The notes below the pieces were generated by a model. It saw nothing but the letters and a program-made list of their open reading frames with translations. It did no database searches and was not told the origin of the DNA. A stretch of DNA of 32,000 nucleotides from Nostoc punctiforme PCC 73102 (GTDB lineage Bacteria > Cyanobacteriota > Cyanobacteriia > Cyanobacteriales > Nostocaceae). The stretch covers positions 1-32,000 of the forward strand of contig NC_010632.1 of NCBI RefSeq assembly GCF_000020025.1, in the 5' to 3' direction. The first letter of the stretch is position 1. Each line of letters opens with the position of its first letter. Both the position numbers and the translations under genes were made by a program. This document shows positions 3,100 through 26,843 of this stretch, piece by piece.

Positions 3100-4050
3100 A
3101 TGCTCAGTCCAACTACCGACTCAGTTCGCTCCTACCTTAAAGAAATCGGTCGCTATCCTCTGCTGACTCCTGACCAAGAAATTACAAACGCTCGACTCGT
3201 GCAGCAGATGATGGCGGTTGAAGAACAGCGCTCAAACCTCGCACTTCAACTCAACCGCCAACCAACTGACTTGGAATTAGCTACGTCGCTTGGGCAAAAC
3301 GAAGCTGAACTACAATCAGTCATCCAACAAGGCCAAAAGGCTAAACAGAAAATGGTGACAGCTAACCTGCGTCTAGTGGTTTCTGTTGCCAAAAAATACC
3401 AGAACTACAGTTTAGATTTTCTTGACTTGCTGCAAGAAGGGGCGCTGGGGCTGCAACGAGGGATTGAAAAGTTTGACCCTAACAAAGGCTACAAACTATC
3501 AACCTATGTTTATTGGTGGATCACGCAATCGATAACACGGGCTGTAGCAGATAAGTCTCGCACTATCCGTCTGCCAATCCATATAAACGAAAAATTAAAC
3601 AAAATCAGGAGAGTACAGCAGCAACTATCTCAATCTTTGGGTCGCCCTCCAGTTGTGGCAGAAATTGCCGAATCGTTGAATCTATCGCCCAATCAAATAC
3701 GGGAATATCTTCAGATTTCTAAGCCTCTAGTCTCCTTAGAAAAGCGAGTGGGAGATGAGGGTGAAAGTGAACTAGCCGATATTTTGCCGATGGATGGCAT
3801 TTCTCTAGATGAGCAAATAACTCTTGAGTCTCTACAGCAGGACTTAGCCAAGTTGCTGGCATTGCTTAAGCCAAGGCAACGAGAAGTATTGACTTTACGT
3901 TTTGGATTGTCAGATAATCAGCAGTTGACTTTGAGTCAAGTTGCAAAACGCCTAAACCTAAGTCGAGAAACAATTCGTAAAACTGAACATCTTGCTCTCT
4001 CTATTTTGCGCTCTCATCAAAATAAAATTAAAGACTATCTTCTTAATTAA
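3100..4050 (+). CDS. RNA polymerase sigma-70 family factor (group-2-like)
   Basis: Region 1.2 SVRSYLKEIGRYPLLT. Region 2 LVVSVAKKYQ..LDFLDLLQEGALGLQRGIEKFDPNKGYKLSTYVYWWITQSITRAV. RpoD-box-like TIRLPIHINEKLNKI. Region 4.2 LTLSQVAKRLNLSRETIRKTE. Confidence 0.9.
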   Translation: MLSPTTDSVRSYLKEIGRYPLLTPDQEITNARLVQQMMAVEEQRSNLALQLNRQPTDLELATSLGQNEAELQSVIQQGQKAKQKMVTANLRLVVSVAKKYQNYSLDFLDLLQEGALGLQRGIEKFDPNKGYKLSTYVYWWITQSITRAVADKSRTIRLPIHINEKLNKIRRVQQQLSQSLGRPPVVAEIAESLNLSPNQIREYLQISKPLVSLEKRVGDEGESELADILPMDGISLDEQITLESLQQDLAKLLALLKPRQREVLTLRFGLSDNQQLTLSQVAKRLNLSRETIRKTEHLALSILRSHQNKIKDYLLN

Positions 4051-4798: not shown

Positions 4799-6007
4799 TT
4801 AACCTGAAGTCAACGTTAATTTCTGACGCTGATTGCCAGAGTTAACCATTTTCACCAAGGAAGAATTCAAATAGCTTTGCGCCGAAATATACAAGCTTTC
4901 CCAAATGTCTTGGTTACGGCTAATTTTCGTACCTACGGTATTTCCTGCTGTTTTCTCCGACACTAAATATTTACGGAAATAGTTCGTCCACAAGTGTTGC
5001 AGAAAATCTTCGGCGAATTCGTTAAAGGGCAGAATCCATTTATAATCTTGATCCAAAAACACTCGATAGGATGCAATTATCGGTAATACCAGGTCAGTTG
5101 GCGCACCAAACCCGAATGAATACTTGCTGTCCGGCAACAACGTCGTTTTACGTATATCAATAGATGCTAAATCATTAACACCCTTTCTTCTGGGGTTGCT
5201 AATATGATCTTGGATGATTTCATAGAGTCTTTGCTCTATCCACAAGGCATGAGTTAGTAGAGGTAGCAGGGCAGTTAATCTTTCCCTCTCAGTGTCGCTA
5301 ATTTGAGAGGGGATACTCATACCTGCCGGGTGCTTGGTTCGTTTATTGCTGTCGGGGTTGTATTTATTTCTGTCCAGGCAGTAAAGGAGCTTCAGCAAAT
5401 GGGTTACATTGCACTGGGCATTTCTGGGAGCGCCACTTTGATTCTGGTAATAGGCAATGCGGAATTTTCTATCTTCTGCCTTTTCTAACTGAGCTAAATA
5501 CTGCTTGATGAATTTGTAATCCCCCCTGGCGTTGACTTTAGAGCGAGAATCTACTGGCGTTGTTGTATTTGATGCCAGGGCGATATCTTTGGCTTCATCT
5601 TCCACTAACCCAATGTGGATAGTGACTTTGACTCTAGCTTGGCTTAGGTCGTATTTGTAATTCTTCGCCTGCTCAAAAGCTAAAACTGTATGACCACCGT
5701 TAATAATCCCATCGCTTCCTCCCTCACTAGCTTCTAAGACTTCTAGTTCAAGTTCGGTTTTATTTTTATTGGGTTTAATTTTATTTACACACAGGGTTAT
5801 TCCACTGTGACGCGAGAAGAATTTATCTGGTTGTGTCGTCACTGAGTCGAAGATTTGCCTGTATGTCGCACTTTTGCGGTTTGGTTCCCTGATGTTTGGT
5901 TCTAGCGGTAGGTCTGTAGGGAATGTGTCTACATGGGCAGTGGCGATAATGCAATTAGGTGCGGCTTGAAAATAGCTATCTATTTTTAAGTTCCAAGTCT
6001 TGGGCAT
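4799..6007 (-). CDS. AIPR-like (abortive infection phage resistance family) / ParB-DndB-fold-like protein
   Basis: 402-aa intact ORF located 70 nt downstream of the SNF2 gene on the same strand. The motifs PNIREPNRKS, FFSRHSGITL and GIINGGHT resemble the N.R ... NNGIT ... NGGQT pattern I associate with Pfam AIPR (PF10592). This assignment is from memory of the family and has not been searched. Confidence 0.55.
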   Translation of the reverse strand: MPKTWNLKIDSYFQAAPNCIIATAHVDTFPTDLPLEPNIREPNRKSATYRQIFDSVTTQPDKFFSRHSGITLCVNKIKPNKNKTELELEVLEASEGGSDGIINGGHTVLAFEQAKNYKYDLSQARVKVTIHIGLVEDEAKDIALASNTTTPVDSRSKVNARGDYKFIKQYLAQLEKAEDRKFRIAYYQNQSGAPRNAQCNVTHLLKLLYCLDRNKYNPDSNKRTKHPAGMSIPSQISDTERERLTALLPLLTHALWIEQRLYEIIQDHISNPRRKGVNDLASIDIRKTTLLPDSKYSFGFGAPTDLVLPIIASYRVFLDQDYKWILPFNEFAEDFLQHLWTNYFRKYLVSEKTAGNTVGTKISRNQDIWESLYISAQSYLNSSLVKMVNSGNQRQKLTLTSG

Positions 6008-6077: not shown

Positions 6078-9000
6078 TTATCCTTGACTAATTAACTGTA
6101 ACAAGGCTTCCGTTGATATCTTGCCACTCATATCAGTACCTTCTAAGAGACTGTCTGCTAAATCTCGCTTTTGGTGATGCAGTTGCACAATCTTTTCTTC
6201 AATAGTATCTTTTGCAACTAGACGATAAATTGTCACTGGGCGTTGTTGCCCAATCCGATGAGCGCGGTCTGAAGCTTGGTCTTCCACAGCGGGATTCCAC
6301 CAAGGGTCTGTATGGATGACATAATCAGCAGCAGTCAGATTGAGTCCTGTACCTCCGGCTTTGAGACTAATAAGAAAGACATCCCCTGAACCAGCCTGAA
6401 ACGCATCCACCCGTTTTTTACGCTCTGCCACTGAAGTACTGCCATCTAGATATTGATAATTAATCCCTTGCTGTTCGAGGTAATCGCGGATAATGTGCAA
6501 ATGGTCAACAAACTGACTAAACACTAACGCCTTATGACGATTTTCCAGCAGTTCACCCAGCACCTCACCAAAAAGTTGCAACTTAGAACTGGGTAATACA
6601 GTATCAGGCATCACTAAACTAGGATTACAACAAGCGCGACGTAATTTCATAATCTCAGCCAAAACTTGCAAATGTTTCTTTCCAGCATCTGCATCACTTT
6701 CGGTAAGTTTAGATATTGCTTGACGGCGCAATGCCTCATAAAATGCCTTTTCTTCTCGACTTAACTCTACATGAAGGAGAATTTCGGTACGAGATGGCAA
6801 CTCTTCTAACACCTGATTTTTTGTCCGACGCAACAGAAATGGTTGAATCAGTTTTTTGAGTTTATTACGTGCAAGTTTATCCTGATATTTTTCAATTGGG
6901 ACGGCAAAGCGTTGATTGAAGCTTTCAAATGAACCCAATAATCCAGGATTAATAAAGCGGAACAAATTCCACAACTCACCCAGGTGATTCTCAATGGGAG
7001 TCCCAGTAGTCAGCAACTTAAAATTAGATTTTAGGTTCATGGCTGCCTGAGAACGTTTAGTGGTCATATTTTTAATCGCCTGGGCTTCATCCAGGACAAT
7101 AGTTTGCCAGTGTACAACAGAGAGCATTTGAGCTACTTCTTCCTGCTGTAATAAACCATAGCTGCATACCAACATATCTAACGGTTGTAACCCATCCAAT
7201 AATTTTTGGCGGTTAGCACCAGAAAATTGAATAATATTGAGGGTTGGGGCAAACTTCTGCGCTTCACTCACCCAATTCATGCACACAGAAGTGGGGGCAA
7301 TAATTAGGGTTGGCCCTTCATGGGCATTTCTGAGAATGACCGCCAATGCCTGCAAGGTCTTACCGAGTCCCATTTGGTCTGCCAAACAAGCTCCTACACC
7401 CCAATGTGCCAAACGCGCCAGCCAACAAAAACCCTCCATCTGGTAGTCACGTAGTTCTGCTTGAAGGGTAGATGGCAGTTCTGGCTGGAGGTTTTTTACC
7501 TCATGGAGATGCTCTCTATGTGTTTTCCAGTGTTTATCTGCTTTTACCTTACCTACCTCATCGACAAAATCTTCTAACCCTAATGTTGCCAATGGGTGAA
7601 AACGAATACCTTTATTATGCTTTTCCGAAAACATCCGTAATTCGTCGAGGCGTTTCCGAAAAGCTTGAGTTAAAGCCAGAAATTGACCATCACCAAGGGG
7701 GATAAATCGGCTGGGGGTTTTCTCCAACAGTTCCAGGAGTTGCTGCATATCTAGCACAAGGTCGTTATTCAATTTCAACTCACCAGTGGCTGCAAACCAG
7801 TCTTGCTGACGTTGAATTGATAAATTAAAGTCTTTCAGGTCGGCATTGTGGCTAATATGCAGCTTTTCTCCTTCTGGCCACGCCATGACTACTTTATTTC
7901 CCAGCGCTTGCAGTTCTAGCAGCAGTTCTAAACATGACTCTGGGTCAACTATTACCCATTCACCATCTTGTTCTTCACTTTGAGCCAAGGTGGGACAGGC
8001 GGCTACAGCGTCGGCGGCAAGTTGCTTCTCAAGAGAAAGATTTCGTCTGGTTTGGAAACGTTTACCCTCAATCTCAGCAATGACAGTTTCACCACCTGTA
8101 CCAGGACGAAAGTAAGGGCCACCTTGGGTAAAAGGGCGCGACAACAGGGTGATTTTCAAGCCGACATTGGCAGGTAAAAGGTGAATATGGGGTAGAGTCT
8201 GGGCGGGTACTTCTTCTGCACCTTCTGAGCCGCCACCAATGTCAGAATGCACTGTGACGATGCCAGAAACGGCATTTATGGCTGCTAAAACTTGCTTTTC
8301 GGCGAAGGCAGGTACGTTTAATTTATTATCCTTACCTATAATCTGTGCGATGCGTCTGTGTTCGGTTGTAATTTCAATAACTTTGATGCGAGTTGGGGTT
8401 TCTTTGATATGCAGAATATTCTGTGATTCTGGTAATTTGGGAGAAAATTCCAAGGTGAGACGACCAAGTTTTTCTTTTTTAACTAGTAGTTCCGGTTCTC
8501 CCTTGACGATTTCTACACGAATATTGGGCATATCTTCCCAAAAAACTAAGGGGTGTCCAATTAAGGCAGAGATGGCTTTTTCGCCGAAGGTATAATCAAC
8601 TTTGCCATAATAGCCCTCACTATATACCTCAATACAACTGCATACCCGCATATCTTGGGGCGTGACGTAATCAAACTCAGCTAATCCACTGCTCAGGCGT
8701 TTGAGGGCTATAGGGCGACCTTTACTCCATTCTCCTTTGGCATTAACTTTTTGTTCCTTTGGTTGTAAGACACATTTGCTGGGATAGAAAGTAATGAACC
8801 ATGCTAAACGCAGTTGGGATTCTGGTTTTAGAGATGTTTGTGGTTGTTTTTGGAGATTTGCTAAGGCATTGAGGCACATTTCCCAAGCCTCTTGGGGTCG
8901 AATTAGGTCTACGATGGTTTGAATATTGCTATCTTCTCGCAGTGCTTCTGCTTCTTTTTGATACTTACTACTAGGTTTAAGCCGGGATAGGAGTTCTGCG

Positions 9001-10289
9001 GTTTCCATTGCCAACCAGTGATAACCGGAGGCGAACGAGCGCTGATATAATGGCTCTAATAACTTAGGTAAGCGTTTTTTCGCACCCTCAGCATCCATCC
9101 AGTAAAGGCATAGTGAACAAAACAATGTTTGTAAGCTATTTTCTTCTTCTACTGAAGAGATATGGGCGCTAAGTACAAATTGTTTTTGAGTAATATCACC
9201 CTGGTGTACTTGCAGCACTGTTTTCAATCTGCCATAAATAAACCTGAGCCAATGATCTCCTTGACGAGACATTAAATTGGTGTATTCTTCTGCTTCTTTG
9301 AGGCGTTGTGCTGAACCATCTTTTAACAACGCCAGGATAAAAAATAAGCCCCCCATTGTATTGAAATATATTTGGCGTTTGCCTGTAGCCTTTTTTATCG
9401 CTTTCAGGGCATCTGTATAATATTTTATGGCTTGCTCATTCTCACCCCGTAGAAAACTTAACCAACCCCAAAAGATAGCAGCGTTATTTTGATATTCATT
9501 CGATACCCGCTCCAGACTTTCTTGCGCTTCTTGGGTACAGCCCTGTAACAGCAGTTGTTCTGTTAAAATCAGGTGCAGATAATCAGAACAATGTTTTCCA
9601 CCTGTTGAACATTGTTCTGACAGCATCATTAAAGCATCCTCAGACACAGACAATTTTAATGCACAATTCAGGAAGATACTTGATATCCCACTTTCATATA
9701 ATCCTTGGGGTAAGGTGTTAAACCCATCTGCATCAAATGGGTTATTAAATATCTGCTCGAAAATATTTTCTATTACTAGCTTTTCTTCACTATCAGCATA
9801 CTTCTGGTAATCTTCAATTTGCTTATTAATAAAGTTAAGGTCTTGACGATAAATACCAATGCGGATTTCTCTGATACACTGGCGCAGACTGTAGAATATC
9901 CGAGAATCATGGTTCCAATGAGTACGTATAGGGAACTTTGACTCTACTGCTATTACTTGGATTTCAAACTGTCCAGTTTGTACAGCATGACGAGTAGCAA
10001 TTTCTGTGAGTAGCGGATGACATTCAGGGCTTTGCCTGCCTGACTGCACTAGCAAACCTACTTTTAACAATTTATCAATTTGGGGACTGAGAGTTTTAGT
10101 AACCCAAAGTTTATTCTTTTCATCTAAAGCACCCATTTTGCTAAGACAGCTTAGAAGTGAATTTTTGTCCACAGGTGCATAAATTATCGCCAAAAGCTGG
10201 ATAACTTTTTGTACAGAACTATCTAAATCAAAGTATTGATTCGCAAGTTTTGTTTGAAGATTTGTAGTATCATTTGCCAATTTAGTCAT
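6078..10289 (-). CDS. SNF2/Swi2-family ATPase with ~900-aa unassigned N-terminal region
   Basis: The C-terminal third carries LRDYQMEGF, ADQMGLGKT (motif I), LDEAQAIKN (II), LTGTPIENHLGELW (III), KALVFSQF, LISLKAGGTGLNLT (V) and QASDRAHRIGQQRPV (VI). Residues 1-900 have no motif I recognise. Confidence 0.9.
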   Translation of the reverse strand: MTKLANDTTNLQTKLANQYFDLDSSVQKVIQLLAIIYAPVDKNSLLSCLSKMGALDEKNKLWVTKTLSPQIDKLLKVGLLVQSGRQSPECHPLLTEIATRHAVQTGQFEIQVIAVESKFPIRTHWNHDSRIFYSLRQCIREIRIGIYRQDLNFINKQIEDYQKYADSEEKLVIENIFEQIFNNPFDADGFNTLPQGLYESGISSIFLNCALKLSVSEDALMMLSEQCSTGGKHCSDYLHLILTEQLLLQGCTQEAQESLERVSNEYQNNAAIFWGWLSFLRGENEQAIKYYTDALKAIKKATGKRQIYFNTMGGLFFILALLKDGSAQRLKEAEEYTNLMSRQGDHWLRFIYGRLKTVLQVHQGDITQKQFVLSAHISSVEEENSLQTLFCSLCLYWMDAEGAKKRLPKLLEPLYQRSFASGYHWLAMETAELLSRLKPSSKYQKEAEALREDSNIQTIVDLIRPQEAWEMCLNALANLQKQPQTSLKPESQLRLAWFITFYPSKCVLQPKEQKVNAKGEWSKGRPIALKRLSSGLAEFDYVTPQDMRVCSCIEVYSEGYYGKVDYTFGEKAISALIGHPLVFWEDMPNIRVEIVKGEPELLVKKEKLGRLTLEFSPKLPESQNILHIKETPTRIKVIEITTEHRRIAQIIGKDNKLNVPAFAEKQVLAAINAVSGIVTVHSDIGGGSEGAEEVPAQTLPHIHLLPANVGLKITLLSRPFTQGGPYFRPGTGGETVIAEIEGKRFQTRRNLSLEKQLAADAVAACPTLAQSEEQDGEWVIVDPESCLELLLELQALGNKVVMAWPEGEKLHISHNADLKDFNLSIQRQQDWFAATGELKLNNDLVLDMQQLLELLEKTPSRFIPLGDGQFLALTQAFRKRLDELRMFSEKHNKGIRFHPLATLGLEDFVDEVGKVKADKHWKTHREHLHEVKNLQPELPSTLQAELRDYQMEGFCWLARLAHWGVGACLADQMGLGKTLQALAVILRNAHEGPTLIIAPTSVCMNWVSEAQKFAPTLNIIQFSGANRQKLLDGLQPLDMLVCSYGLLQQEEVAQMLSVVHWQTIVLDEAQAIKNMTTKRSQAAMNLKSNFKLLTTGTPIENHLGELWNLFRFINPGLLGSFESFNQRFAVPIEKYQDKLARNKLKKLIQPFLLRRTKNQVLEELPSRTEILLHVELSREEKAFYEALRRQAISKLTESDADAGKKHLQVLAEIMKLRRACCNPSLVMPDTVLPSSKLQLFGEVLGELLENRHKALVFSQFVDHLHIIRDYLEQQGINYQYLDGSTSVAERKKRVDAFQAGSGDVFLISLKAGGTGLNLTAADYVIHTDPWWNPAVEDQASDRAHRIGQQRPVTIYRLVAKDTIEEKIVQLHHQKRDLADSLLEGTDMSGKISTEALLQLISQG

Positions 10290-12563: not shown

Positions 12564-12752
12564 TTAAACCTCTAAAACCTTGTGAAAAATCTCCTGGCTG
12601 GAAAAAAGGACAGCCAGGTCATAATAATTACAAATGACGTAAAGTTGGGCATTTCGGCGCAAGAACATCTGCTGATTATGCCGCCGTCTAATCTCCTCTT
12701 CAGTCAGGTGTAACTGTTCTGAAAAGCTCAAATCATCGTATTGGTTATACAT
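12564..12752 (-). CDS. Hypothetical small protein (62 aa)
   Basis: The ATG at 12752 overlaps the stop of the upstream gene (ATGTATAA, 8-nt overlap). It is the last gene of the minus-strand block. Confidence 0.45.
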   Translation of the reverse strand: MYNQYDDLSFSEQLHLTEEEIRRRHNQQMFLRRNAQLYVICNYYDLAVLFSSQEIFHKVLEV

Positions 12753-13056
12753 CTTCGTGAACTCCAATAAAACTAAAGTATTCGGCTGAAAGTTCCATCA
12801 AGTATTTCAGAGCCAAGCAATCACCATAATTTGTATATATTTGAGCGATCGCCTGGAGGATGAACGGAATATTATCCGGTGTGACATTTTGGAACTGAAT
12901 GGCTAAATTAAATGCTGAGTTTTCATCTTCTGGCTCTAGGGGTTGTGCGTCAGTCCACACAATTAAACCTCGCTTATCCAGTTCTGCTAAAGAAATATCG
13001 TTTAGAGCATCCACAACGGAATCAGGTGCATATTTTATTAATAGCTTAATCACCAA
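12745..13056 (-). CDS. Hypothetical acidic protein (~102 aa)
   Basis: Intact ORF. The GTG at 13053 forms a GTGA overlap with the stop of the HNH-like frame upstream. The TTG at 13056 is the alternative start. Confidence 0.55.
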   Translation of the reverse strand: MVIKLLIKYAPDSVVDALNDISLAELDKRGLIVWTDAQPLEPEDENSAFNLAIQFQNVTPDNIPFILQAIAQIYTNYGDCLALKYLMELSAEYFSFIGVHEDV

Positions 13057-13325
13057 ATAACACCTCCATAAAGTAATTGATATCCCAGCCTCAATCTGGT
13101 AATAAATTCGTCAGTATTACGATTGTCCCAAACAGGATTACTACGGCTTTTTATCCAGTTGATTGGACTATGACAAACATCATCATGACAACGGTAGCAC
13201 GTAGGAAATGTAGATTGACCAATGATGTCATTGCCGTAGTAAGCGTGATGGATTTCTTCGCTTTTTCTAGTCAGACAAACTACACAATAATTGTGGGTTT
13301 TCCGGTGAGCGATGCCTACGGCGGG
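13050..13325 (-). pseudogene. HNH-like Cys/His-box reading frame lacking a start, preceded by an in-frame TAG
   Basis: The 91 codons read PAVGIAHRKTHNYCVVCLTRKSEEIHHAYYGNDIIGQSTFPTCYRCHDDVCH... with no ATG/GTG/TTG. The same frame is open upstream (..NWNARYGDPKKYRKQVALV) but is interrupted by TAG at 13326-13328. Confidence 0.45.
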
Positions 13326-13384
13326 CTACACCAACGCTACTTGCTTCCTATACTTCTTGGGATCACCATATCGAGCGTTCCAGT

Positions 13385-14926
13385 TTAATTGTCGTGAAAG
13401 CCGAGATTTTCTAGTAATAGAGTCACCCCCTTTTCGTTTAACTCTTGCCCTGTTAATTCGTGCCACTTTTGTTTGATTTCCTGAAAATGTGGTCTTCTCC
13501 CTAATTCTGTTGCCCATTTTCTAATTTCTTCATACCAGTCAACCTGCTGCTGTGAGGATTGCTGATTATTTTTAGAACTATTAACAGTGTCATTATTCGG
13601 CTTGGAATCTTGTTTTTGTTCCAGACCTTTGATATCAAATTCCGGGATTAGGGCAACAAAGGGATTACCACGAGTTGGAATTACTAGGGCATATCGAACT
13701 CCGGCTTTATCCAACATTTCGCAAGCCTGTCGCAAGATTTCAAGAATTTCTTTTTTGACATTCAGAAAATCCTGGGGATGGTCAAGGATATAACTCGATG
13801 TCTGCCCTACAGCAATAAAGCAAACGTTTTTCAGAGATGGGCGACTAAATCCGGTTTCTCCAGAGAGCGGGGACTGGCCCATAAACACCCCATGTCCTTT
13901 AAGTCCGGCGGTGAATTTGATGATATAGTTCCAAAAACCTTGCAAGTCTTTGGCAGTATCAGCATCAACCATTCCTGGAAGTCCCTTGCCACCACCATAA
14001 ACACTATCTACTTCATCCTGAGCAAGAAATAATTCGGGAACACCGTGACATTCACCACCAACAATTGATACTCTTGCTTTCTGCTTGTCAATTTGGTCTG
14101 TGGCAAAGGTAATCCAATCTCTTAACGCTTTCATACCGTCAAACTTACGGCTGAACTTGCACAACCATCTGGTGACATCATCTTTTGGATCGCTGCCGAT
14201 GACAATTGCTGGCGTTTGAGATTTTGCACCAATTTTGTTGATAATCACCCCAGCCAGCGTAGACTTCCCAGATTGTGTACCACCAGATAGGTAAAAATGG
14301 TGATTACTGCGAAGAGTCATATTTTGATTAGATGCAGCATCACACAGTTCATCAATCCAAGCACTATCAATTCTGATGTATTCAGGATAATTAGCTGCGA
14401 TCGCTTGCAGAACTTTCATTGCACCTGGATTGATGATGCTCTGTACAAACTCTTCATCAATGTCAGCAATATCAGGATTGGGAATACCAGTCCGCGAAGG
14501 TTGGTGTTGTGCTGGTGGTTCGGGCAGAGTTACCAAGCCTTGCAACTGGTATTCAGCTATCCACCGGGGGCGCTCAGTAATGGGCAGACGATTCACATAA
14601 TCAGCAACTCTGCGTTTGGCATCAATCGCTGTAGTTACATAATTGTATGCTGCTTGACCTTGCAAATGTTGTTTGAGTGCTTTCAAATCAGCTTCTAGCA
14701 AAGATTTGTAAACTTTTTCCTTACTTTCGCTGATTTGGGCAGATACCCCAAACAAACCAGCACTAATCGTCCCAGCGCCGAGTAAGATTCCGGTTGTTAT
14801 TCTGTCAGTATTTAAGAAAAAAGGAGCAGACAGACATAACACTGCACTCGCTCCTAAACTGCATAAGATAGTCCGTTCTGCATGAATTACACTACTGGCA
14901 GTTAGTCGTTCTAATTCAAAACCCAT
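13385..14926 (-). CDS. Membrane-anchored P-loop NTPase (FtsK/TraB/type-IV-coupling-protein-like)
   Basis: Two N-terminal hydrophobic segments (ILCSLGASAVLCLSAPFFL; GILLGAGTISAGLFGVSA). Walker A is FYLSGGTQSGKSTLAG and Walker B is PELFLAQDEVD, followed by GHGVFMGQSP. There is a basic helical C-terminal tail. The family assignment comes from motif order only. Confidence 0.6.
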   Translation of the reverse strand: MGFELERLTASSVIHAERTILCSLGASAVLCLSAPFFLNTDRITTGILLGAGTISAGLFGVSAQISESKEKVYKSLLEADLKALKQHLQGQAAYNYVTTAIDAKRRVADYVNRLPITERPRWIAEYQLQGLVTLPEPPAQHQPSRTGIPNPDIADIDEEFVQSIINPGAMKVLQAIAANYPEYIRIDSAWIDELCDAASNQNMTLRSNHHFYLSGGTQSGKSTLAGVIINKIGAKSQTPAIVIGSDPKDDVTRWLCKFSRKFDGMKALRDWITFATDQIDKQKARVSIVGGECHGVPELFLAQDEVDSVYGGGKGLPGMVDADTAKDLQGFWNYIIKFTAGLKGHGVFMGQSPLSGETGFSRPSLKNVCFIAVGQTSSYILDHPQDFLNVKKEILEILRQACEMLDKAGVRYALVIPTRGNPFVALIPEFDIKGLEQKQDSKPNNDTVNSSKNNQQSSQQQVDWYEEIRKWATELGRRPHFQEIKQKWHELTGQELNEKGVTLLLENLGFHDN

Positions 14927-14929
14927 AAA

Positions 14930-15217
14930 TTATCGCACCCCCAACGCAACACCAGCACAAACTAAAGTCAGAAAGGCAAACAGAAATATTACCCCAGGCA
15001 TCAAGCCGATGGTAAAAGTTTTGCGGTTAAATCCAAAACCTTTAACGACTAAACCGCCAAAGTTGAATAACCCCAGAAATATGCAGCAGATAGAGATTAT
15101 GCCGATAAACCAAAGAATGTACTTACTAACGGGGCTGGCAACCGATAAATAACCCATAAACATAGAAAAGCCAACCCCGCACACTGCATATCCTATATGA
15201 AAGAGCTTGATTTGCAT
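14930..15217 (-). CDS. Small integral membrane protein (95 aa, ~3 TM)
   Basis: Almost entirely hydrophobic, with three predicted helices. It ends 3 nt before the ATPase start. Confidence 0.7.
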   Translation of the reverse strand: MQIKLFHIGYAVCGVGFSMFMGYLSVASPVSKYILWFIGIISICCIFLGLFNFGGLVVKGFGFNRKTFTIGLMPGVIFLFAFLTLVCAGVALGVR

Positions 15218-15220
15218 AAT

Positions 15221-15255
15221 CAGAATCCAGAAGTCAGGAGCCAGGAGTCAGAATG
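15221..15255. repeat. Tandem heptamer array (5 x CAGRAKN)
   Basis: CAGAATC CAGAAGT CAGGAGC CAGGAGT CAGAATG. It is the inverted complement of the array at 15603-15636 and supplies the last codons and stop of the four-helix-bundle gene. Confidence 0.9.
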
Positions 15256-15599
15256 GAATTAGAATAACTTGTAAGCAGTTTACTAACTTCTTCAAGTAGC
15301 AGCATTAATTCTGACATATCACCATATTTCAGATCACTTGACAGAATTAAATAATAGCGACACTCTTCTAAAGAGCCTTGAGCAATATTCATAAATTTCG
15401 CTTTATCTGCTAATCCTTTTTTCTTAAAGCCTTCCGCAATATTTGCTGGAATAGAAATTGCTGCTCTTCTAAACTGTGATGTAAGCCCATATATTTCTGA
15501 TTTAGGAAACTCATTAGTTATTCGATACACTGATAAAACAAACCGATGCGCTTTTTGCCAAACTATCAAATCTTGAAATGTTCTTGCTGGTTGTCTCAT
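15234..15599 (-). CDS. Four-helix-bundle protein (23S rRNA intervening-sequence protein family)
   Basis: FQDLIVWQKAHRFVLSVYRITNEFPKSEIYGLTSQFRRAAISIPANIAEGFKKKG..AKFMNIAQGSLEECRYYL is the canonical signature of this family (TIGR02436 / PF05635). Confidence 0.9.
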   Translation of the reverse strand: MRQPARTFQDLIVWQKAHRFVLSVYRITNEFPKSEIYGLTSQFRRAAISIPANIAEGFKKKGLADKAKFMNIAQGSLEECRYYLILSSDLKYGDMSELMLLLEEVSKLLTSYSNSILTPGS

Positions 15600-15602
15600 T
15601 TG

Positions 15603-15636
15603 TTCTGACTCCTGACTTCTGACTCCTGACTCCTGA
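15603..15636. repeat. Tandem heptamer array (4.9 x TYCTGAC)
   Basis: TTCTGAC TCCTGAC TTCTGAC TCCTGAC TCCTGA. It is the reverse complement of the 15221-15255 array and abuts the stop codon (15638-15640) of the upstream gene. Confidence 0.9.
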
Positions 15637-15637
15637 T

Positions 15638-16078
15638 CTAGAACCTGAAACTATCTCCCACTTCATCAAATGCTTTCTCGTATCCTCCGAGTTGACGCTG
15701 CTGTTCAATAGAACCAAAGGCATGACGGATCACTGCCTCCCCATGTAATCCCCTGGTTCGCTGCAAATCTTCCTCAACCTTCATGGCTTCTTGGGAATAT
15801 GCCAATTGGTTTTTATACATCTCTGCCAAAGATTGCAACTGTTTGAGCTTGTGCCGGGAGAACTTTGTATGTAGCCACTTCTGTGCTTTTAAATTGCCAG
15901 CCACTTCTGCTTCATCCAGAACCTGCTGTGCTGTAGTGTAAGCTGGCAATGTGTAGCGATCGCGGATTGATGAAGGTAAATTACCCTCAATTTGTGTTGC
16001 ATCACCCACCCTTAAATCTGTTGACACTACTCCATCACCTTTACCGCCAAATAAACCAGGAAGCCATTTTCCTAACAT
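15638..16078 (-). CDS. Hypothetical protein (146 aa)
   Basis: Intact ORF in the operon series. No motif recognised. Confidence 0.6.
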   Translation of the reverse strand: MLGKWLPGLFGGKGDGVVSTDLRVGDATQIEGNLPSSIRDRYTLPAYTTAQQVLDEAEVAGNLKAQKWLHTKFSRHKLKQLQSLAEMYKNQLAYSQEAMKVEEDLQRTRGLHGEAVIRHAFGSIEQQRQLGGYEKAFDEVGDSFRF

Positions 16079-16094
16079 TCTTTTCTCCCCCCTA

Positions 16095-16415
16095 CTACTT
16101 AAAATTGGTATAAGTTTGCTGAACTTGTTGCACCTGCGACCCGATATAACGGGTTATGCCATATATCCCCATAAAGGAAAACATCAATACAGTAAAGGCT
16201 GCGATCGCAGTTTGAGCCATCATCCCTCGCTGCATCAGTTCCTCAATCTGCCTATTAGATTGCGATCGCACCTTTGACTCATCAATAAGTTGCTGGACGA
16301 CTAGGAACTCTTCTGTTGTCAGGTTTTCGAGTGTTAAACCGGACAGATTCAATTCGCCGTCCTTCTTCAGGTGAATATTTAATGCTTTGCGATGGGTTTG
16401 GTCTTGTTGCTCCAT
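16095..16415 (-). CDS. Hypothetical protein with C-terminal TM helix (106 aa)
   Basis: Acidic, coiled N-terminal part and the hydrophobic segment AIAAFTVLMFSFMGIYGI. It overlaps ORF 16282..16500, whose only protein-like part is an N-terminal TM segment. A frameshifted single gene is possible. Confidence 0.5.
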   Translation of the reverse strand: MEQQDQTHRKALNIHLKKDGELNLSGLTLENLTTEEFLVVQQLIDESKVRSQSNRQIEELMQRGMMAQTAIAAFTVLMFSFMGIYGITRYIGSQVQQVQQTYTNFK

Positions 16416-16480
16416 ATATTGCCACGCCCAAAACGAGGGTTAATAGCAGCAGATTTAGTACTGCTGCTACCAAGATGAAT

Positions 16481-16993
16481 TTATTCGGTCGCATCTGCAT
16501 TGCTAGCAGAGAGATAGAGCGATGTAATCTCCTGACCGAACCGAAAAAAGGCTTCTGGTTCTCCCTGGAATTCTTTGGCGAACTGTGCTACTTCTGCTAA
16601 ATACTCGTTAGAAACATTAGCTAAAGTTTCGATTGTTTCAACTGCCTCCTTGTGAGCAAACTCGCGTGTCCCTTGGGTAATTGCAGAATTAAAAGATTGA
16701 ATCTCTGCTAACGACTGCTTGGCCTGATTGGCAAGTGAAGTTTTATAATCACTCATGCTCTGTTGAGCTTTATTGGTTTTGGCAGTACGTTTGGTAGTTT
16801 TAGCTGTTTTACCATTGCTAGAAACAATTAAATTACTAGCTTTTTTGAGTGCCACAAGTTCGTCAGAGATGGCAATAATTTCTGCCTCAGTAATCGCATC
16901 AGGATCTACGCTTTTGTTTTGTAAGTACAAGCGTAGTTCTTCAGAACTCATTTCGATTCCATTAGCAATGAGAAGTTCTTGTAAATCGTTCAT
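16481..16993 (-). CDS. Hypothetical protein (170 aa)
   Basis: ATGA overlap with the upstream gene at 16990-16993. Lys/Thr-rich linker. No motif recognised. Confidence 0.65.
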   Translation of the reverse strand: MNDLQELLIANGIEMSSEELRLYLQNKSVDPDAITEAEIIAISDELVALKKASNLIVSSNGKTAKTTKRTAKTNKAQQSMSDYKTSLANQAKQSLAEIQSFNSAITQGTREFAHKEAVETIETLANVSNEYLAEVAQFAKEFQGEPEAFFRFGQEITSLYLSASNADATE

Positions 16994-17436
16994 GAAGTGG
17001 CTCCTATTGATTTAGGTTGACGAAATTTGAATTTAGTTTGAGAAGCAATTTTTTTGACCCATTGCTGAATTTCAAATTCGGTGTAAATCTTATCTACGGA
17101 AAATGGCACTCCAATTTCTTGACCCCATCTGTAAATTGTCGGTTTTGATGGTCGCGGTTCTAGTCTTTGTAATGCTTCAAAGAGTTGAGCGCCGTTGCAT
17201 GACAATTGTGGCAAGTTTGAACAAATAAATTCGTAGCGTTGAACATCTGATAATCGAATGGTGCGATTGGGATTTAAAAGCTTCAGTTGAGCATAAGCTC
17301 TTACCAGCAGAATTACCCCAGCTTTGGCACTGGTGGTATCAGATATTTCTAATCGACGAAGAATTCTTGGCCAAGTGTAATCACTAACTTGACCAACAAT
17401 TTTTTCATATTCGTTCCTCAGAATTGTTCCTGCCAT
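16990..17436 (-). CDS. Hypothetical protein with probable HTH (148 aa)
   Basis: First gene after a divergent intergenic region. SKPTIYRWGQEIGVPF resembles an excisionase/MerR-type HTH. Confidence 0.55.
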   Translation of the reverse strand: MAGTILRNEYEKIVGQVSDYTWPRILRRLEISDTTSAKAGVILLVRAYAQLKLLNPNRTIRLSDVQRYEFICSNLPQLSCNGAQLFEALQRLEPRPSKPTIYRWGQEIGVPFSVDKIYTEFEIQQWVKKIASQTKFKFRQPKSIGATS

Positions 17437-17484
17437 AGAAACAGCCGTAACATCTTTGCAATTCTAGATTAACATAAATAACCT

Positions 17485-17502
17485 ATCTATAATCCTATAG
17501 AT
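17485..17502. promoter_or_regulatory. Dyad ATCTATA-n4-TATAGAT in a divergent promoter region
   Basis: 7-bp arms read directly from the sequence. It lies between the divergent genes 16990..17436 (-) and 17585..17800 (+). An operator role is inference. Confidence 0.35.
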
Positions 17503-17584
17503 GAGGTATTGTTCTGAAAAAGTTCTCGGCAAAAACATAGAACTATAGGGGTAAAGTTAGGTAAGCGTTATTGTCGAGGAGAAA

Positions 17585-17800
17585 ATGCCTAAGAAAACTA
17601 CACCAAAAATGGTTCAGACTGGAGTTTCTATTCCAGAACCGTTGTATGAAGCCGCAAAGCGAGTTCAAGCAATGGAGGGCTGGAATGAGTCAGAAATGCA
17701 TCGCGTCTTTTGGGAAAAAGGATTTGCGCTTCACCTTCAAGGAACTCTTGCCCGTTACCAGTTGGGTTTGATTCCTGAAGCACAAAATACCGCCGAATAA
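17585..17800 (+). CDS. Small protein, possible ribbon-helix-helix regulator (71 aa)
   Basis: GAGGAG lies 4 nt upstream of the ATG. TGVSIPEPLYEAAKRVQAMEGWNESEMHRVFWEKG fits a strand-helix-helix layout. A terminator follows. Confidence 0.5.
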   Translation: MPKKTTPKMVQTGVSIPEPLYEAAKRVQAMEGWNESEMHRVFWEKGFALHLQGTLARYQLGLIPEAQNTAE

Positions 17801-17818: not shown

Positions 17819-17846
17819 AAAGGGGAGTATTGCACCCCTTTTTTTG
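17819..17846 (+). terminator. Rho-independent terminator-like hairpin
   Basis: AAAGGGG-agtattgca-CCCCTTT followed by a T-run, 19 nt after the stop of 17585..17800. Confidence 0.55.
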
Positions 17847-17864
17847 TGCCTTCGCTAAAAAGCA

Positions 17865-19960: not shown

Positions 19961-20135
19961 CAATTCGCAATTCGCAGTTCGCAATTCGCAATTAAATACA
20001 AGAAATCACTTGTTATTTAATTGTTAATTAATGGGTCTTAATCCACCACTGATTCAAAAGAAAGTGGTCTTAAATCAGTGGTGGGTTTAAGCTCTCACTG
20101 ATTCAATCAATTGCGAATTGCGAATTGCGAATTGC
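19961..20135. repeat. Element bounded by inverted heptamer arrays (CAATTCG)n / (AATTGCG)n
   Basis: Left array is 19961-19993 (4.7 copies) and right array is 20109-20135 (3.9 copies, reverse complement). The 115-nt interior contains the hairpin CCACCACTGATT ... AATCAGTGGTGG. Confidence 0.85.
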
Positions 20136-20141
20136 TTTGAT

Positions 20142-20720
20142 ATGCCTTTTCGGATGGCTGATTACCGTTTGAGAGTATATCGCCGTTTTCCCAAGAAGCG
20201 AATGCACCAAGTCGTAATTTACTTAGATAAAACTGAATCGGAGAAGGTGTATCAAACTACTTTCATTGCTGGAAGTTTACAACATGAATTTTCAGTGATT
20301 CGTTTGTGGGAGCAACCGCCAGAGGTCTTTTTGACAGCGCCAGGATTACTCCCTTTTGCGGTCTTAAGTGCTACTGAGAACAAAGTTGCGACATTGCAAC
20401 AGTCATCTGCGGCTGTTGACAAAATTGCTGACAGGCGAACACAAAGTAATATTGCTGCCGCTTCTGCAATTCTGGCTGGGTTAGTATTAGAACAAGAAGT
20501 GATTAGACGTTTATTTAGGAAGGACATAATGCGCGAGTCTGTGATTTACCAACAAATTAAAACCGAAGGTGAAGAAGAAGGGAGCGATAAAAAAGCCCGT
20601 AAAATTGCTATTAACTTATTAGCTGAGGGCATCAGCGTTGATGTGATAGCTAGGTCTACTGGCTTATCAATAGAAGTAGTGCAACAATTACAGCAGGGAG
20701 AATTCGAGAACCAAGAGTAA
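20142..20720 (+). pseudogene. N-terminally truncated Rpn-family (PD-(D/E)XK putative transposase, DUF4351-type C-terminus) gene
   Basis: DMPFRMADYRLRVYRRFPKKRMHQVVIYL ... EFSVIRLWEQPPEVFL..PGLLPFAVLS ... QSNIAAASAILAGLVLE ... MRESVIYQQIK matches the middle and C-terminal parts of the cyanobacterial Rpn-like family. The N-terminal ~100 aa with catalytic residues is absent, and the frame starts inside the heptamer array. Confidence 0.6.
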
Positions 20721-25244: not shown

Positions 25245-26843
25245 ATGCTGACACTAGACAGAGAACAAACAACAGCACTCGATTACAGTGTTGTCAACAC
25301 CAGTATCCAGGAAACTTTCAGTGCTATTAACCGTTTTGAGTGGCAAGCAATAGATGAACTACGTCTAATGCGAGACAACCACTATTACAAAGATGGTGGA
25401 TATCTCAGCTTTGAAGACTATTGTGAAAAAGAGCTAATCAAACACGGTGGATATCGCCGAGTCAGAGATTTACTGTCTGCGAAGAAAGTAGTTGATACTC
25501 TGCCAGAGGAACTGAAAGACAAGATTACTAAGCCTTCTCAAACTCGCTCCTTGCTCCGACTGGTGAAAACTCCCGATAAGTTAGAGCAAGCTGTTGCGAT
25601 CGCAGCAAAAGAGAAACCCTTCCCCACTGCCGCCGACTTCACCAAAGCAGTACAGAAGGTCGTTCCAAAAAATACGTCACCCACTAGAACCAGTAGCACA
25701 AAACAAGAAAAAGTCAAAACGCAATTGTGTAATTCTGTTACTGTTTCTTCCCTTTCACATCCTCGTTATGGGGATTCGGGAGTGATCGAGGCAGACGCAC
25801 CCAATAACTATCAGCAGATTGTTACCTTTAGTGATGGTGAGAGGCTGCTGGTAAACAATAGTGATTTGGCTGGTTTAAATGACGCAATTGTGTCCGAATC
25901 GAGTGGGCGAACTTACCCAAAAGAGTACACCGAAGCGATCGCTGCTATTGAAGAACGTCATAAACAGGAGTTAGAGCAACTTTCCCAAGAATTGAGGATT
26001 GGTTTGCAAGCAGAAGCAGCTACCAGAGCCGAAGCTCAGGTACAAGAACAAATCCAATCCTTGCAGCAACTGTACAAGCAACAAAAGGAGCAAAACGTTC
26101 AGTTACAGCAACGCTTAGACGAGATGGAGGGGTTGAGAAAGTTAGAGATTGAGAATCAGCAACTCCAGCAACGTATCCAAGAATTGGAAAACGCGGTTGA
26201 ACAGCGCCCTTCCCAACAATGGGGAAATACTATGACCCAGCAAGCGACCAAAGCGTTAAACAAACAGGTGAAACAGGCGTTAGAGAAAACCATTGATTTG
26301 CGATCGCTAGCTGTTGAACCACCCAAAGAAAACGCCCAAGAATGTCTGCGGCTCATGGGCATGGCTTTGAAAAACTTAGCGAGTGCGATGAACAACACCC
26401 AAGCATTGGAGGCTGCGGCGATAATTCTGGGGAGTGAACCGACACAATCCGCGATCGCATATCGAGCCGAACAACTGGAAATGCTACCCCAGGCGGTTAG
26501 TGAGATTAAGGCAATATTAGCTAAACCTGGATGTACTTGGCATGAGTTTTTGAATGTTGCCCAAGAGTACGAAGTTATTAAACAGGACTATTGGGCAGAA
26601 CTTACCACCCAGGAAACAGATTTAATTGCCACACTCCAAAACGCATCCTCTCAACCAGACACCATTGGCATCGGCTCTATTGTTGCCCATGCCGACCCCT
26701 ACCGTACTTTGTATGTCGAGAGGGGTGAAGTTGTAGAGGATTTGGGCGAGGAAGTAGTGGTGGCATGGGATTGTTGGAAGGAGCAATCGAAAAAGACTGA
26801 CAGGTATTTCCGAGATGAGTTGCGGTTTTGGCAGCCTGAATAG
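25245..26843 (+). CDS. Large coiled-coil protein of unknown function (532 aa)
   Basis: Intact ORF. The N-terminal ~130 aa (YYKDGGYLSFEDYCEKELIKHGGYRRVRDLLSAKKV) resemble DNA-binding regions of plasmid/phage ParB-/KorB-like proteins, which is an impression only. There is a central Q/E-rich coiled coil and a small beta-rich C-terminal domain. Confidence 0.7.
   Translation: MLTLDREQTTALDYSVVNTSIQETFSAINRFEWQAIDELRLMRDNHYYKDGGYLSFEDYCEKELIKHGGYRRVRDLLSAKKVVDTLPEELKDKITKPSQTRSLLRLVKTPDKLEQAVAIAAKEKPFPTAADFTKAVQKVVPKNTSPTRTSSTKQEKVKTQLCNSVTVSSLSHPRYGDSGVIEADAPNNYQQIVTFSDGERLLVNNSDLAGLNDAIVSESSGRTYPKEYTEAIAAIEERHKQELEQLSQELRIGLQAEAATRAEAQVQEQIQSLQQLYKQQKEQNVQLQQRLDEMEGLRKLEIENQQLQQRIQELENAVEQRPSQQWGNTMTQQATKALNKQVKQALEKTIDLRSLAVEPPKENAQECLRLMGMALKNLASAMNNTQALEAAAIILGSEPTQSAIAYRAEQLEMLPQAVSEIKAILAKPGCTWHEFLNVAQEYEVIKQDYWAELTTQETDLIATLQNASSQPDTIGIGSIVAHADPYRTLYVERGEVVEDLGEEVVVAWDCWKEQSKKTDRYFRDELRFWQPE

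Follow-up and report, generated by a model that had tools for sequence, protein, structure and literature searches.

The window analysed here is the whole stretch of 32,000 nt from Nostoc punctiforme PCC 73102 (NC_010632.1, positions 1-32,000). On its minus strand, between 12564 and 17436, lies a tight run of genes that, as read from the sequence, is a real conserved operon around a predicted membrane-anchored DNA pump of the FtsK type and a nuclease partner, common to Nostoc plasmids and to phages of filamentous cyanobacteria. With a probability of about 0.8, this module is a self-contained accessory unit of the mobile elements of filamentous cyanobacteria. It would comprise an FtsK/SpoIIIE motor anchored by transmembrane (TM) helices, a 3-TM protein and small membrane partners, two helical proteins, helix-turn-helix (HTH) proteins and a coupled nuclease, which is inactivated in the window copy. 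The main new point is the systematic pairing of ATPase and nuclease. In the literature searched, no functional study of any module member was found, and the multi-gene module, its distribution across phages and plasmids and its swappable nuclease are undescribed.

The features of the locus, with the evidence for each, are as follows.

16990-17436, minus strand: 148-aa protein, DNA-binding-type, HTH-like.
16481-16993, minus strand: 170-aa helical protein (open reading frame, ORF, and homologue alignment).
16282-16500, minus strand: 72-aa frame with one TM helix (ORF, hydropathy, codon-position signature).
16095-16415, minus strand: 106-aa protein with one TM helix (ORF, hydropathy, codon-position signature).
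15638-16078, minus strand: 146-aa helical protein (ORF and homologue alignment).
15234-15599, minus strand: 121-aa four-helix-bundle gene (PF05635), within an inserted cassette (15219-15637).
14930-15217, minus strand: 95-aa protein with three hydrophobic segments (ORF, hydropathy).
13385-14926, minus strand: 513-aa ATPase (motifs, AlphaFold model, profiles).
13050-13467, minus strand, ORF listed as 13050-13325: HNH-like (NinG-like) nuclease gene, broken (motif, relatives).
12745-13056, minus strand: 103-aa protein (ORF; plasmid lineage only).
12564-12767, minus strand: 67-aa protein (ORF; plasmid lineage only).
17585-17800, plus strand: 71-aa divergent gene (ORF; homologues beside the 148-aa family).
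17437-17584, no strand assigned: divergent intergenic control region (positional evidence only).

The ORF listing holds every gene described in the original prediction, and the co-directional operon that it proposed around the 513-aa ATPase stands: all the genes are on the minus strand and their order recurs in dozens of loci. As to its ten members, the core genes hold; the 121-aa gene proves to be an inserted cassette and the HNH-like frame is broken by a TAG codon. The junctions were put at 1-16 nt and are in fact more varied, with overlaps of 4 nt (148/170), 20 nt (170/72) and 134 nt (72/106) and, further along the run, gaps of 16, 38, 16 and 3 nt. The last of these separates the end of the 95-aa gene from the start of the ATPase gene, which overlap as TAATG in relatives; the 3-TM gene is predicted to be translationally coupled to that of the ATPase. 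The core accessory genes and the ATPase are intact in the window copy and highly similar to those of relatives. Its full functionality appears uncertain, because the nuclease gene is broken and an unrelated cassette lies between the 146-aa and 95-aa genes.

For the ATPase, translation and hydropathy bear out the predicted motifs and the two N-terminal TM helices: Walker A is GGTQSGKST (215-223), Walker B is LFLAQDEVD (299-307), GQSP lies at 350-353 and the TM segments span 19-39 and 43-61. All 54 aligned homologues keep residues K221, D304, E305 and Q351 unchanged, and GQSP presumably stands in place of the TQRP-type motif of FtsK. An AlphaFold (AF2) model built from the same 54-homologue alignment has a mean predicted local distance difference test score (pLDDT) of 84. 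Its N-terminal helices, 4-37 and 42-112, form the TM hairpin (19-61) and run on as a long stalk. Next come a disordered linker and the P-loop core (~180-430), in which beta strands and alpha helices alternate at 210-426; a further disordered linker leads to a confident three-helix bundle (464-507) with no predicted wing.

Which family does this ATPase belong to? Searched directly against Pfam (including PF01580), NCBIfam and PDB sequences, the window protein gave only P-loop noise. In a Foldseek search of the PDB, the model matched best the coupling protein TcpA of pCW3 (E 2.3e-5, target TM-score 0.45), then the FtsK motor (7.5e-5) and EccC-type ATPases, all of them ahead of KaiC, Rho and ClpX. 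The fold is thus closer to FtsK-type motors than to other ATPases of the additional strand, catalytic E (ASCE) division, which the original prediction had left as an equal option and which the ranking disfavours. Structure matches in BFVD were its own cyanophage relatives, followed by A32-type packaging ATPases and phage proteins named 'DNA translocase FtsK'. A profile of 21 of the most distant family members reached FtsK chains in the PDB at 1e-10 (P. aeruginosa FtsK) and 1.3e-7, and also EccC5 (3.7e-6), HerA (7.6e-6) and TcpA (5e-3). PF01580 was found in 10 of these 21 members, always below the gathering score (best 2.1e-5). Because the fold matches and the transitive profile evidence from distant members agree, we conclude that the window ATPase is a divergent member, on a new branch, of the FtsK/SpoIIIE clade, in line with the FtsK/TraB-like, membrane-anchored ATPase first proposed and of the TraB/TcpA-like type.

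The family is small, with only 211 clusters at E <=1e-3 in an exhaustive hidden Markov model (HMM) search of 1.84 billion representative proteins, and 178 of its 190 full-length members carry an N-terminal hydrophobic anchor. The C-terminal domain gives weak matches to HNH_repeat, an HTH repeat associated with homing HNH endonucleases (0.026 for the window protein, 0.00099 for distant members), and to phrog_38189 (6.5e-6); no cognate DNA motif for this domain was found. One metagenomic relative, P0133 (612 aa), has kept the membrane/stalk N-terminus and a C-terminal HTH plus PD-(D/E)XK region, and its P-loop core has seemingly been swapped for another (VVYGPKGSGKS ... FICDEFEG), the family profile matching only the two ends, which suggests modular exchange of the motor. 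An apparent fusion of the 95-aa and ATPase genes in locus L040 was rejected, the 3-TM gene there being frameshifted instead.

The operon is a conserved unit, as the survey of Nostocales plasmids advised by the original prediction bore out. Iterated HMM searches of plasmids and viral contigs recover one core order: 148-like, 170-like, small TM, 146-like, small TM, ATPase. In many loci the 148-like gene is inverted and the 71-aa gene adjoins it. Dozens of independent loci repeat this order, with protein identities of 20-95%, which puts the arrangement far beyond chance, and the six-gene synteny persists down to ~20-25% identity. Pattern scans found it in 41 Nostocales genome contigs and 29 IMG/VR viral contigs. 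The ATPase gene is present on 13 plasmids (12 from Nostoc, one from Halotia) at 82-94% identity, on up to three plasmids of one strain and five times over on a single plasmid; by typing, seven of the 13 are non-mobilizable and six conjugative. No other plasmid carrier was found among 72,556 plasmids, even with distant family members as queries. Related plasmids such as PCC 7120 alpha, which carry the 532-aa protein encoded at 25245-26843 in the window, do without the module. The module is for this reason accessory, and its being the plasmid replicon is ruled out, the 532-aa marker occurring on 31 Nostocales plasmids and the module on 13.

A plasmid-specific system, as first envisaged, does not fit this distribution, since lytic tailed phages of filamentous cyanobacteria carry the module at least as typically. 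It corresponds to gp113 to gp108 of the Aphanizomenon siphovirus CL131, is present in the Leptolyngbya phage Lbo402-yong5, where the ATPase is annotated as 'DNA translocase coupling protein', and occurs in the Anabaena/Nostoc/Dolichospermum myoviruses A-1(L), A1, N1, YongM, YongM2, Elbi and Dfl-JY23, where it is a core component of each of the seven phages of the A-1/N-1 type. A protein of a Nodularia phage is matched by its fold. The named hosts are all filamentous (Nostoc, Anabaena, Aphanizomenon, Dolichospermum, Nodularia, Halotia, Chlorogloeopsis and the phylogenetically distant Leptolyngbya), and no phage of unicellular cyanobacteria gave a match among 50,697 phage records. Wherever a host is named, the module is restricted to elements of filamentous cyanobacteria, as far as the sequence collections searched reach. 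In A-1(L) it lies directly upstream of helicase and PolB genes; its neighbours are SNF2 and PolB in the phage contig L075 and Rep_1, RecT and DnaN in the distant locus L074. In pNPM1 it sits inside a long series of small genes that all point one way, ERF, BRO and zeta-toxin genes among them; the window shares this array without the ERF gene. The only chromosomal copy found is that of Chlorogloeopsis fritschii PCC 6912 (L064, 10248-13535), followed by radical-SAM and QueC genes, with TnpB-type genes flanking. The radical-SAM and QueC set we take to be typical of phage 7-deazaguanine DNA modification, and this copy may be a prophage or an integrated element.

A role in phage morphogenesis, which the original prediction had named as an outcome that would overturn it, is ruled out, because the inspected regions of these phages show their own terminase, portal and capsid genes (Lbo402-yong5, where they lie elsewhere from the module) or tail-fibre genes (A-1(L)). 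The absence of a classical type IV secretion system (T4SS) was correctly foreseen. No VirB4, relaxase or pilin is detectable among the window proteins, and such a system is ruled out by this and by the occurrence of the complete module in lytic phages.

The nuclease partner adjoins the ATPase gene. In relatives, the HNH-like ORF begins no later than the stop codon of the ATPase gene; in phage contigs, this stop and the ATG of the ORF run into each other as TGATG, TAATG or ATGA. The alignment of Nostoc plasmid and several phage versions has the invariant pattern CxxC-x7-HH...N...CxxCH...H. The homologue in Lbo402-yong5 is a coding sequence annotated as NinG, the ORF directly after the ATPase in L074 is an HNH protein of PF01844 (22.5 bits, cut-off 21.4), and in P0169 an HNH domain (20.4 bits) is fused to the ATPase C-terminus. 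The CL131-type ATPases, of 635-645 aa, have no HNH ORF and carry a fused C-terminal domain with a D...ExK motif, which matches PDDEXK_9 at E 1.5e-5 (25.4 bits, cut-off 25.5). The plasmid-type HNH-like subfamily matched nothing in Pfam or the PDB, and its reading as a nuclease rests on the motif and on the parallels in L074, P0169 and the CL131-type proteins. That three interchangeable forms of nuclease occupy the same position argues that motor and nuclease work together. The link appears to be frequent and not universal, since no HNH pattern is present in the 2.5 kb downstream of the ATPase in phages of the A-1(L) type.

In the window, the HNH-like gene lies in the -1 frame with respect to the ATPase gene and overlaps the 3' end of the latter. 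The gene, whose start is a GTG at ~13467 (uncertain), is interrupted by a 21-nt insertion (13314-13334) that introduces an in-frame TAG at 13326-13328. The insertion, TTGGTGTAGCCCGCCGTAGGC, sits in a GCGATCGC-like (HIP1-like) site, and its 16-nt core occurs only once in the window. Another Nostoc contig (L052, ~1830-1850) has a related, independent 21-nt insertion in the same site in opposite orientation; these presumably resemble the very small mobile repeats of Nostoc genomes. A -1 ribosomal frameshift from the ATPase into the HNH-like frame at A-AAG-GGG was also considered and rejected, as the heptamer is not conserved in relatives.

The 148-aa family (17 members aligned, homologues in 55 loci including phages Lbo402-yong5 and CL131) shows two conserved motifs, RTW... 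and T.YRWA.E, and one member matches HTH_17 at E 1.8e-5. Its gene is codirectional in the window and inverted or divergent in many relatives. The 170-aa protein (homologues in 59 loci) consists of a small N-terminal domain, a Lys-rich linker and a helical C-terminal domain, with only weak Apolipoprotein-type family matches. The 146-aa protein is the best conserved of the accessory proteins, with homologues in 62 loci, an N-terminal M-L-x-x-x-F-G-G motif and a C-terminal aromatic motif. Its AF2 model is helical at a low confidence of pLDDT 56 (a shallow alignment of 14 sequences at >=63% identity), and neither the PDB nor Pfam has a relative of it. The operon contains three conserved small TM proteins, without detectable similarity to any described family. 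For the 72-aa frame, hydropathy gives a segment at 5-33, so that the N-terminal ~30 residues form one TM helix; codon-position variability over 31 loci indicates that this frame is coding over its first ~85 nt only, encoding the helix, and that the 106-aa frame is coding within the 134-nt overlap and beyond. Homologues of the 72-aa frame are present in phage contigs. The 106-aa protein, annotated in pNPM1, has a C-terminal TM helix (66-88), and a small hydrophobic ORF fills the position of the 95-aa gene in plasmids and phages. Downstream of the nuclease, the 103-aa gene start overlaps the HNH-like stop (GTGA), and the 67-aa protein, ~100 aa in relatives, is found in 34 loci.

Profile searches of the PDB with the 148-, 170-, 146-aa and HNH-like families and the 71-aa gene gave no meaningful match. 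When the operon proteins were scanned against Pfam, NCBIfam, PHROGs and PADLOC, only the product of the inserted four-helix-bundle gene scored above threshold. Homologues of the divergent 71-aa gene adjoin the 148-aa family in 15 loci. Its product is probably a repressor, and a ribbon-helix-helix fold would be a guess from sequence pattern. A GGGG/CCCC hairpin followed by a T7 run (17820-17847) lies after this gene. The control region between the divergent genes contains TATAG-type repeats, a -10-like TAGAAT (17466-17461) and one promoter-like match (17489-17461), a kind of match no commoner here than in shuffled sequence.

The 121-aa gene product is a four-helix-bundle/23S rRNA intervening sequence (IVS) protein (PF05635, E 7e-37). 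The cassette ends in 35-nt inverted repeats (15219-15253 and 15603-15637) built of CTGACTC-type heptamers, and the gene is absent from relatives or lies at other intergenic positions of the operon. On these two grounds it is read as an insertion that is not part of the machine and is predicted to be unrelated to it. It behaves like a small mobile cassette, to judge by its ends and positions. In the relatives L003, L037, L039, L042, L046, L048 and L068 it is found before the 3-TM gene, in the gap between 3-TM and ATPase genes or after the ATPase, a position in which it replaces the HNH-like ORF.

What might a module of this kind do? By analogy it would work most like TraB/Spd or TdtA/NurA. In Streptomyces, TraB is an FtsK-like pump that, together with small Spd membrane proteins, spreads plasmids in a multicellular bacterium (PMC4447253). 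The module resembles the TraB/Spd systems of pSVH1 and pIJ101 in that one FtsK-like ATPase, associated with the membrane, carries a C-terminal domain of putative DNA-binding type, the operon includes several small membrane proteins that fall into no recognisable family, a repressor gene is divergent or adjacent (only a probable repressor in the module), the host is multicellular and filamentous, and no VirB4, pilin or relaxase is present. However, it has no recognised clt-like cluster of 8-bp repeats, its regulator is not of the GntR type, it is also core in lytic phages and its host is diderm with a continuous outer membrane. Furthermore, it has a nuclease partner, which TraB systems lack and which the original prediction had missed. 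The likeness of the small proteins to Spd that had been suggested finds no echo in detectable similarity; Spd proteins are themselves unconserved in sequence.

For ICEth1 of Thermus thermophilus, experiments have shown that T4SS-independent donation of DNA by the membrane-bound ATPase TdtA also requires a restriction enzyme and a NurA-like nuclease (PMC5365140). This transjugation system (TdtA, NurA-like, Tth111II) likewise places a membrane-bound ATPase of the FtsK/HerA superfamily in an operon with nucleases on a mobile element. Differently to the module ATPase with its TM hairpin, TdtA is HerA-like and has none; its nucleases are NurA and a type IIG enzyme instead of HNH-like or PD-(D/E)XK proteins, its context is an integrative and conjugative element (ICE) instead of a plasmid or phage, and ICEth1 lacks the set of small membrane proteins. 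The ATPase model shows no HerA-type HAS barrel (a TM hairpin and long helix take its place), and no NurA-family nuclease is present. The module thus departs from both systems in specific points, lacking a recognised clt and Spd similarity in the one case and the HerA barrel and NurA in the other.

The other relatives of the motor differ more in their partners. TcpA of Clostridium perfringens pCW3 (PDB 6o1w-6o1z) shares two N-terminal TM helices followed by an FtsK-type motor, but it works with a full Tcp T4SS (the VirB4-like TcpF, TcpH, TcpC) and the relaxase TcpM. These partners are absent from the window and unannotated in the inspected phage regions, and identity is ~14-16%. FtsK and SpoIIIE belong to the same clade and have the same order of anchor, linker, motor and C-terminal domain (for DNA recognition in FtsK and SpoIIIE, of putative DNA-binding type in the module), and FtsK also cooperates with a cutting and rejoining enzyme, XerCD. 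In contrast to their four or five TM helices, the module ATPase has two, plus a separate 3-TM protein, its C-terminal bundle lacks a predicted wing, and it is element-encoded and accessory. The type VII ATPases EccC/EssC have three tandem FtsK-like domains and WXG100 substrates, whereas a single P-loop domain is present here.

The family-wide anchor and the membrane partners favour a task related to transport or the septum over a purely cytoplasmic one. Because of the TraB/Spd and TdtA precedents, export of DNA or its spread to neighbouring cells, independently of a T4SS, is ranked first among the functions, tentatively and at less than even odds. Also counted in its favour are the FtsK/SpoIIIE fold and profile matches, the coupling of the 3-TM gene to that of the ATPase, a domain architecture that parallels FtsK and TraB, the three forms of nuclease partner, the filamentous nature of all named hosts and the accessory status of the module. 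Independence of a T4SS follows from the co-resident plasmid copies and the non-mobilizable typing of seven of the 13 carriers; conjugation in the strict sense is unlikely as a general role, since the module is at least as typical of lytic tailed phages. In such an apparatus, the HTH proteins and the C-terminal domain of the ATPase would select the DNA of the element, and the nuclease would create or process a DNA end or branch. A presumed hexameric motor would then pump double-stranded DNA, presumably outwards, through a channel to which the small membrane proteins contribute. From the producing cell, the DNA would reach its filament neighbours via septal structures or the shared periplasm, and the biological purpose would be the spread of plasmids and replicating phage genomes along the filament. 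This last and more specific proposal, in which genomes move from cell to cell through septal structures, or through the periplasm and the DNA-uptake machinery of the neighbour, is the less probable part and is regarded as speculative.

Microscopy of A-1(L)-type infection has been described in terms of 'potential cell-to-cell spread' (bioRxiv 10.64898/2026.02.14.705889), which is weakly compatible with export or spread and not evidence for it. Several observations weigh against such a role. The same preprint reports adjacent cells to be strongly asynchronous in infection state (bioRxiv 10.64898/2026.02.14.705889). None of the module proteins is predicted to cross peptidoglycan or a second membrane, and neither the small membrane proteins nor the helical ones show any likeness to Spd proteins or to components of Tcp systems or T4SSs. 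The clt-like repeats whose search the original prediction proposed did not appear: neither a direct-repeat family nor a cluster of 7-9-mers was found within or beside 12.4-18.1 kb, where a dispersed or degenerate motif would escape. The nuclease gene is broken in the window copy while the rest is intact. The host restriction could reflect gene exchange within one phage-plasmid network, and for any member of the module the argument for export is one of analogy. Finally, as a core set of strictly lytic phages beside replication and recombination genes (helicase and PolB, SNF2, RecT/ERF, DnaN), the module would fit DNA processing at least as well.

This processing alternative is possible if doubtful, and comes next. 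A membrane-tethered translocase and its nuclease, a NinG/Rap-like or PD-(D/E)XK junction cutter, would resolve or clear branched, concatemeric or multimeric DNA of the element during replication and recombination, as an analogue of FtsK plus a resolvase at the membrane or septum. The company the module keeps agrees with it (helicase and PolB in A-1(L), SNF2 and PolB, Rep_1/RecT/DnaN, ERF in pNPM1), as do the NinG annotation of the nuclease homologue in Lbo402-yong5 and core status in all seven A-1/N-1-type phages. In Streptomyces phages an FtsK-like gene also lies beside a Holliday-junction resolvase and is 'possibly used during replication' (PMC11536984). Such phage-borne genes of Geonosis, Mandalore and Naboo, at least one of them beside the resolvase, have no demonstrated homology to the whole module (PMC11536984, bioRxiv 10.1101/2024.02.16.580700). 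What processing leaves unexplained is the family-wide TM anchor together with the conserved small membrane proteins, and the lack of the module in phages of unicellular cyanobacteria, many of which are sequenced and for which branched DNA is the same problem. Moreover, no recombinase or dif-like site was identified and related plasmids manage without the module.

Superinfection exclusion or defence, in which the membrane motor would capture incoming foreign DNA at its point of entry and the nuclease destroy it, seems unlikely. The pairing of an ATPase with a nuclease, carriage on mobile elements and a membrane site are typical of defence systems, the window neighbours include an AIPR abortive-infection protein and the 1403-aa SNF2 protein, and a repressor-like gene diverges from the operon. 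However, exclusion genes are usually patchy and variable, whereas the module keeps its synteny to ~20-25% identity and is core in lytic phages; up to three plasmids of a strain carry it, with five copies on one plasmid, and PADLOC returned no significant defence-system match.

Less probable by far is a genome-entry motor, an early membrane translocase that would pull the rest of the element DNA into a new cell, comparable to the two-step entry of T5 or phi29. The membrane location, the sharing of the module by phages and partly conjugative plasmids and the place of the plasmid module in a long unidirectional small-gene array, resembling a leading or early region, could suit such a motor, but the phage gene lies mid-genome beside replication genes, away from the genome ends, DNA that arrives by conjugation is single-stranded on entry, seven of the 13 carriers are typed as non-mobilizable and the nuclease has no clear role there. 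The least probable reading, a type IV coupling protein for a T4SS elsewhere on the plasmid or a type VII secretion system (T7SS)-like exporter of the small helical proteins, can draw on TcpA as the top structural match, on the EccC/EssC matches, on two N-terminal TM helices followed by a nucleotide-binding domain, on six of 13 carriers typed as conjugative and on conserved C-terminal motifs of the small helical proteins, but the window has no VirB4 or relaxase, the complete module occurs in lytic phages with no conjugation genes annotated in the inspected regions of CL131, Lbo402-yong5 and A-1(L), the C-terminal DNA-binding-type domain and nuclease fusions point to a DNA substrate, and a T7SS is ruled out by one ATPase domain instead of three and by the lack of a WXG motif in the operon proteins (146-, 170-, 103- and 67-aa proteins).

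If the module does move DNA between cells, it would be the first element-encoded device for intercellular DNA transfer in cyanobacteria and its phages the first tailed phages with such a device, and the TraB principle would extend to a diderm multicellular phylum. This would bear on the spread of infections, plasmids and symbiosis-related traits in Nostoc filaments. On the more specific proposal of movement from cell to cell, a phage infection or a plasmid could pass through a multicellular bacterium with no stage outside its cells. The more conservative readings too would leave a small family that couples a membrane-anchored FtsK-type motor to interchangeable nucleases. For the model Anabaena phages A-1(L) and N-1, in which the module belongs to the core set, a Cas12a editing method exists (PMC11530783).

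The surroundings of the operon have the look of a Nostoc-type plasmid, with ParA/ParB, a sigma-70 factor, the AIPR protein, the 1403-aa SNF2 protein and insertion sequence (IS) elements, and the window shares 85-90% nucleotide identity with Nostoc plasmids. The 532-aa protein, which has no Pfam or PDB relative, is by its distribution a backbone marker of this plasmid group, conserved on 31 Nostocales plasmids, often in several copies, with 13 places on a single plasmid of 805 kb. Also encoded in the window, at 3100-4050 and 30727-31869, are a sigma-70 factor that is group-2-like and complete and a protein containing a GUN4-like domain. Besides the full AIPR gene (4799-6007), a partial second copy (2586-2927) lies just downstream of parB; its 103 aa are 92% identical to residues 236-338 of the pNPM1 AIPR protein, and it is probably a gene fragment left by rearrangement. 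In the 1403-aa protein (6078-10289) the SNF2/helicase match is confined to the C-terminal third (~950-1350), and the N-terminal ~900 residues have no Pfam match; SNF2-type helicases adjoin the module also in the phage contig L075 and in A-1(L). Lastly, two inverted arrays of tandem heptamers (TTCGCAA/TTGCGAA), at 19961-19992 and 20109-20133 and ~150 nt apart, lie just upstream of a plus-strand ORF (20118-20720), at a place where pNPM1 carries its ERF gene, and may form an iteron-like site or mark the two ends of a further inserted cassette.

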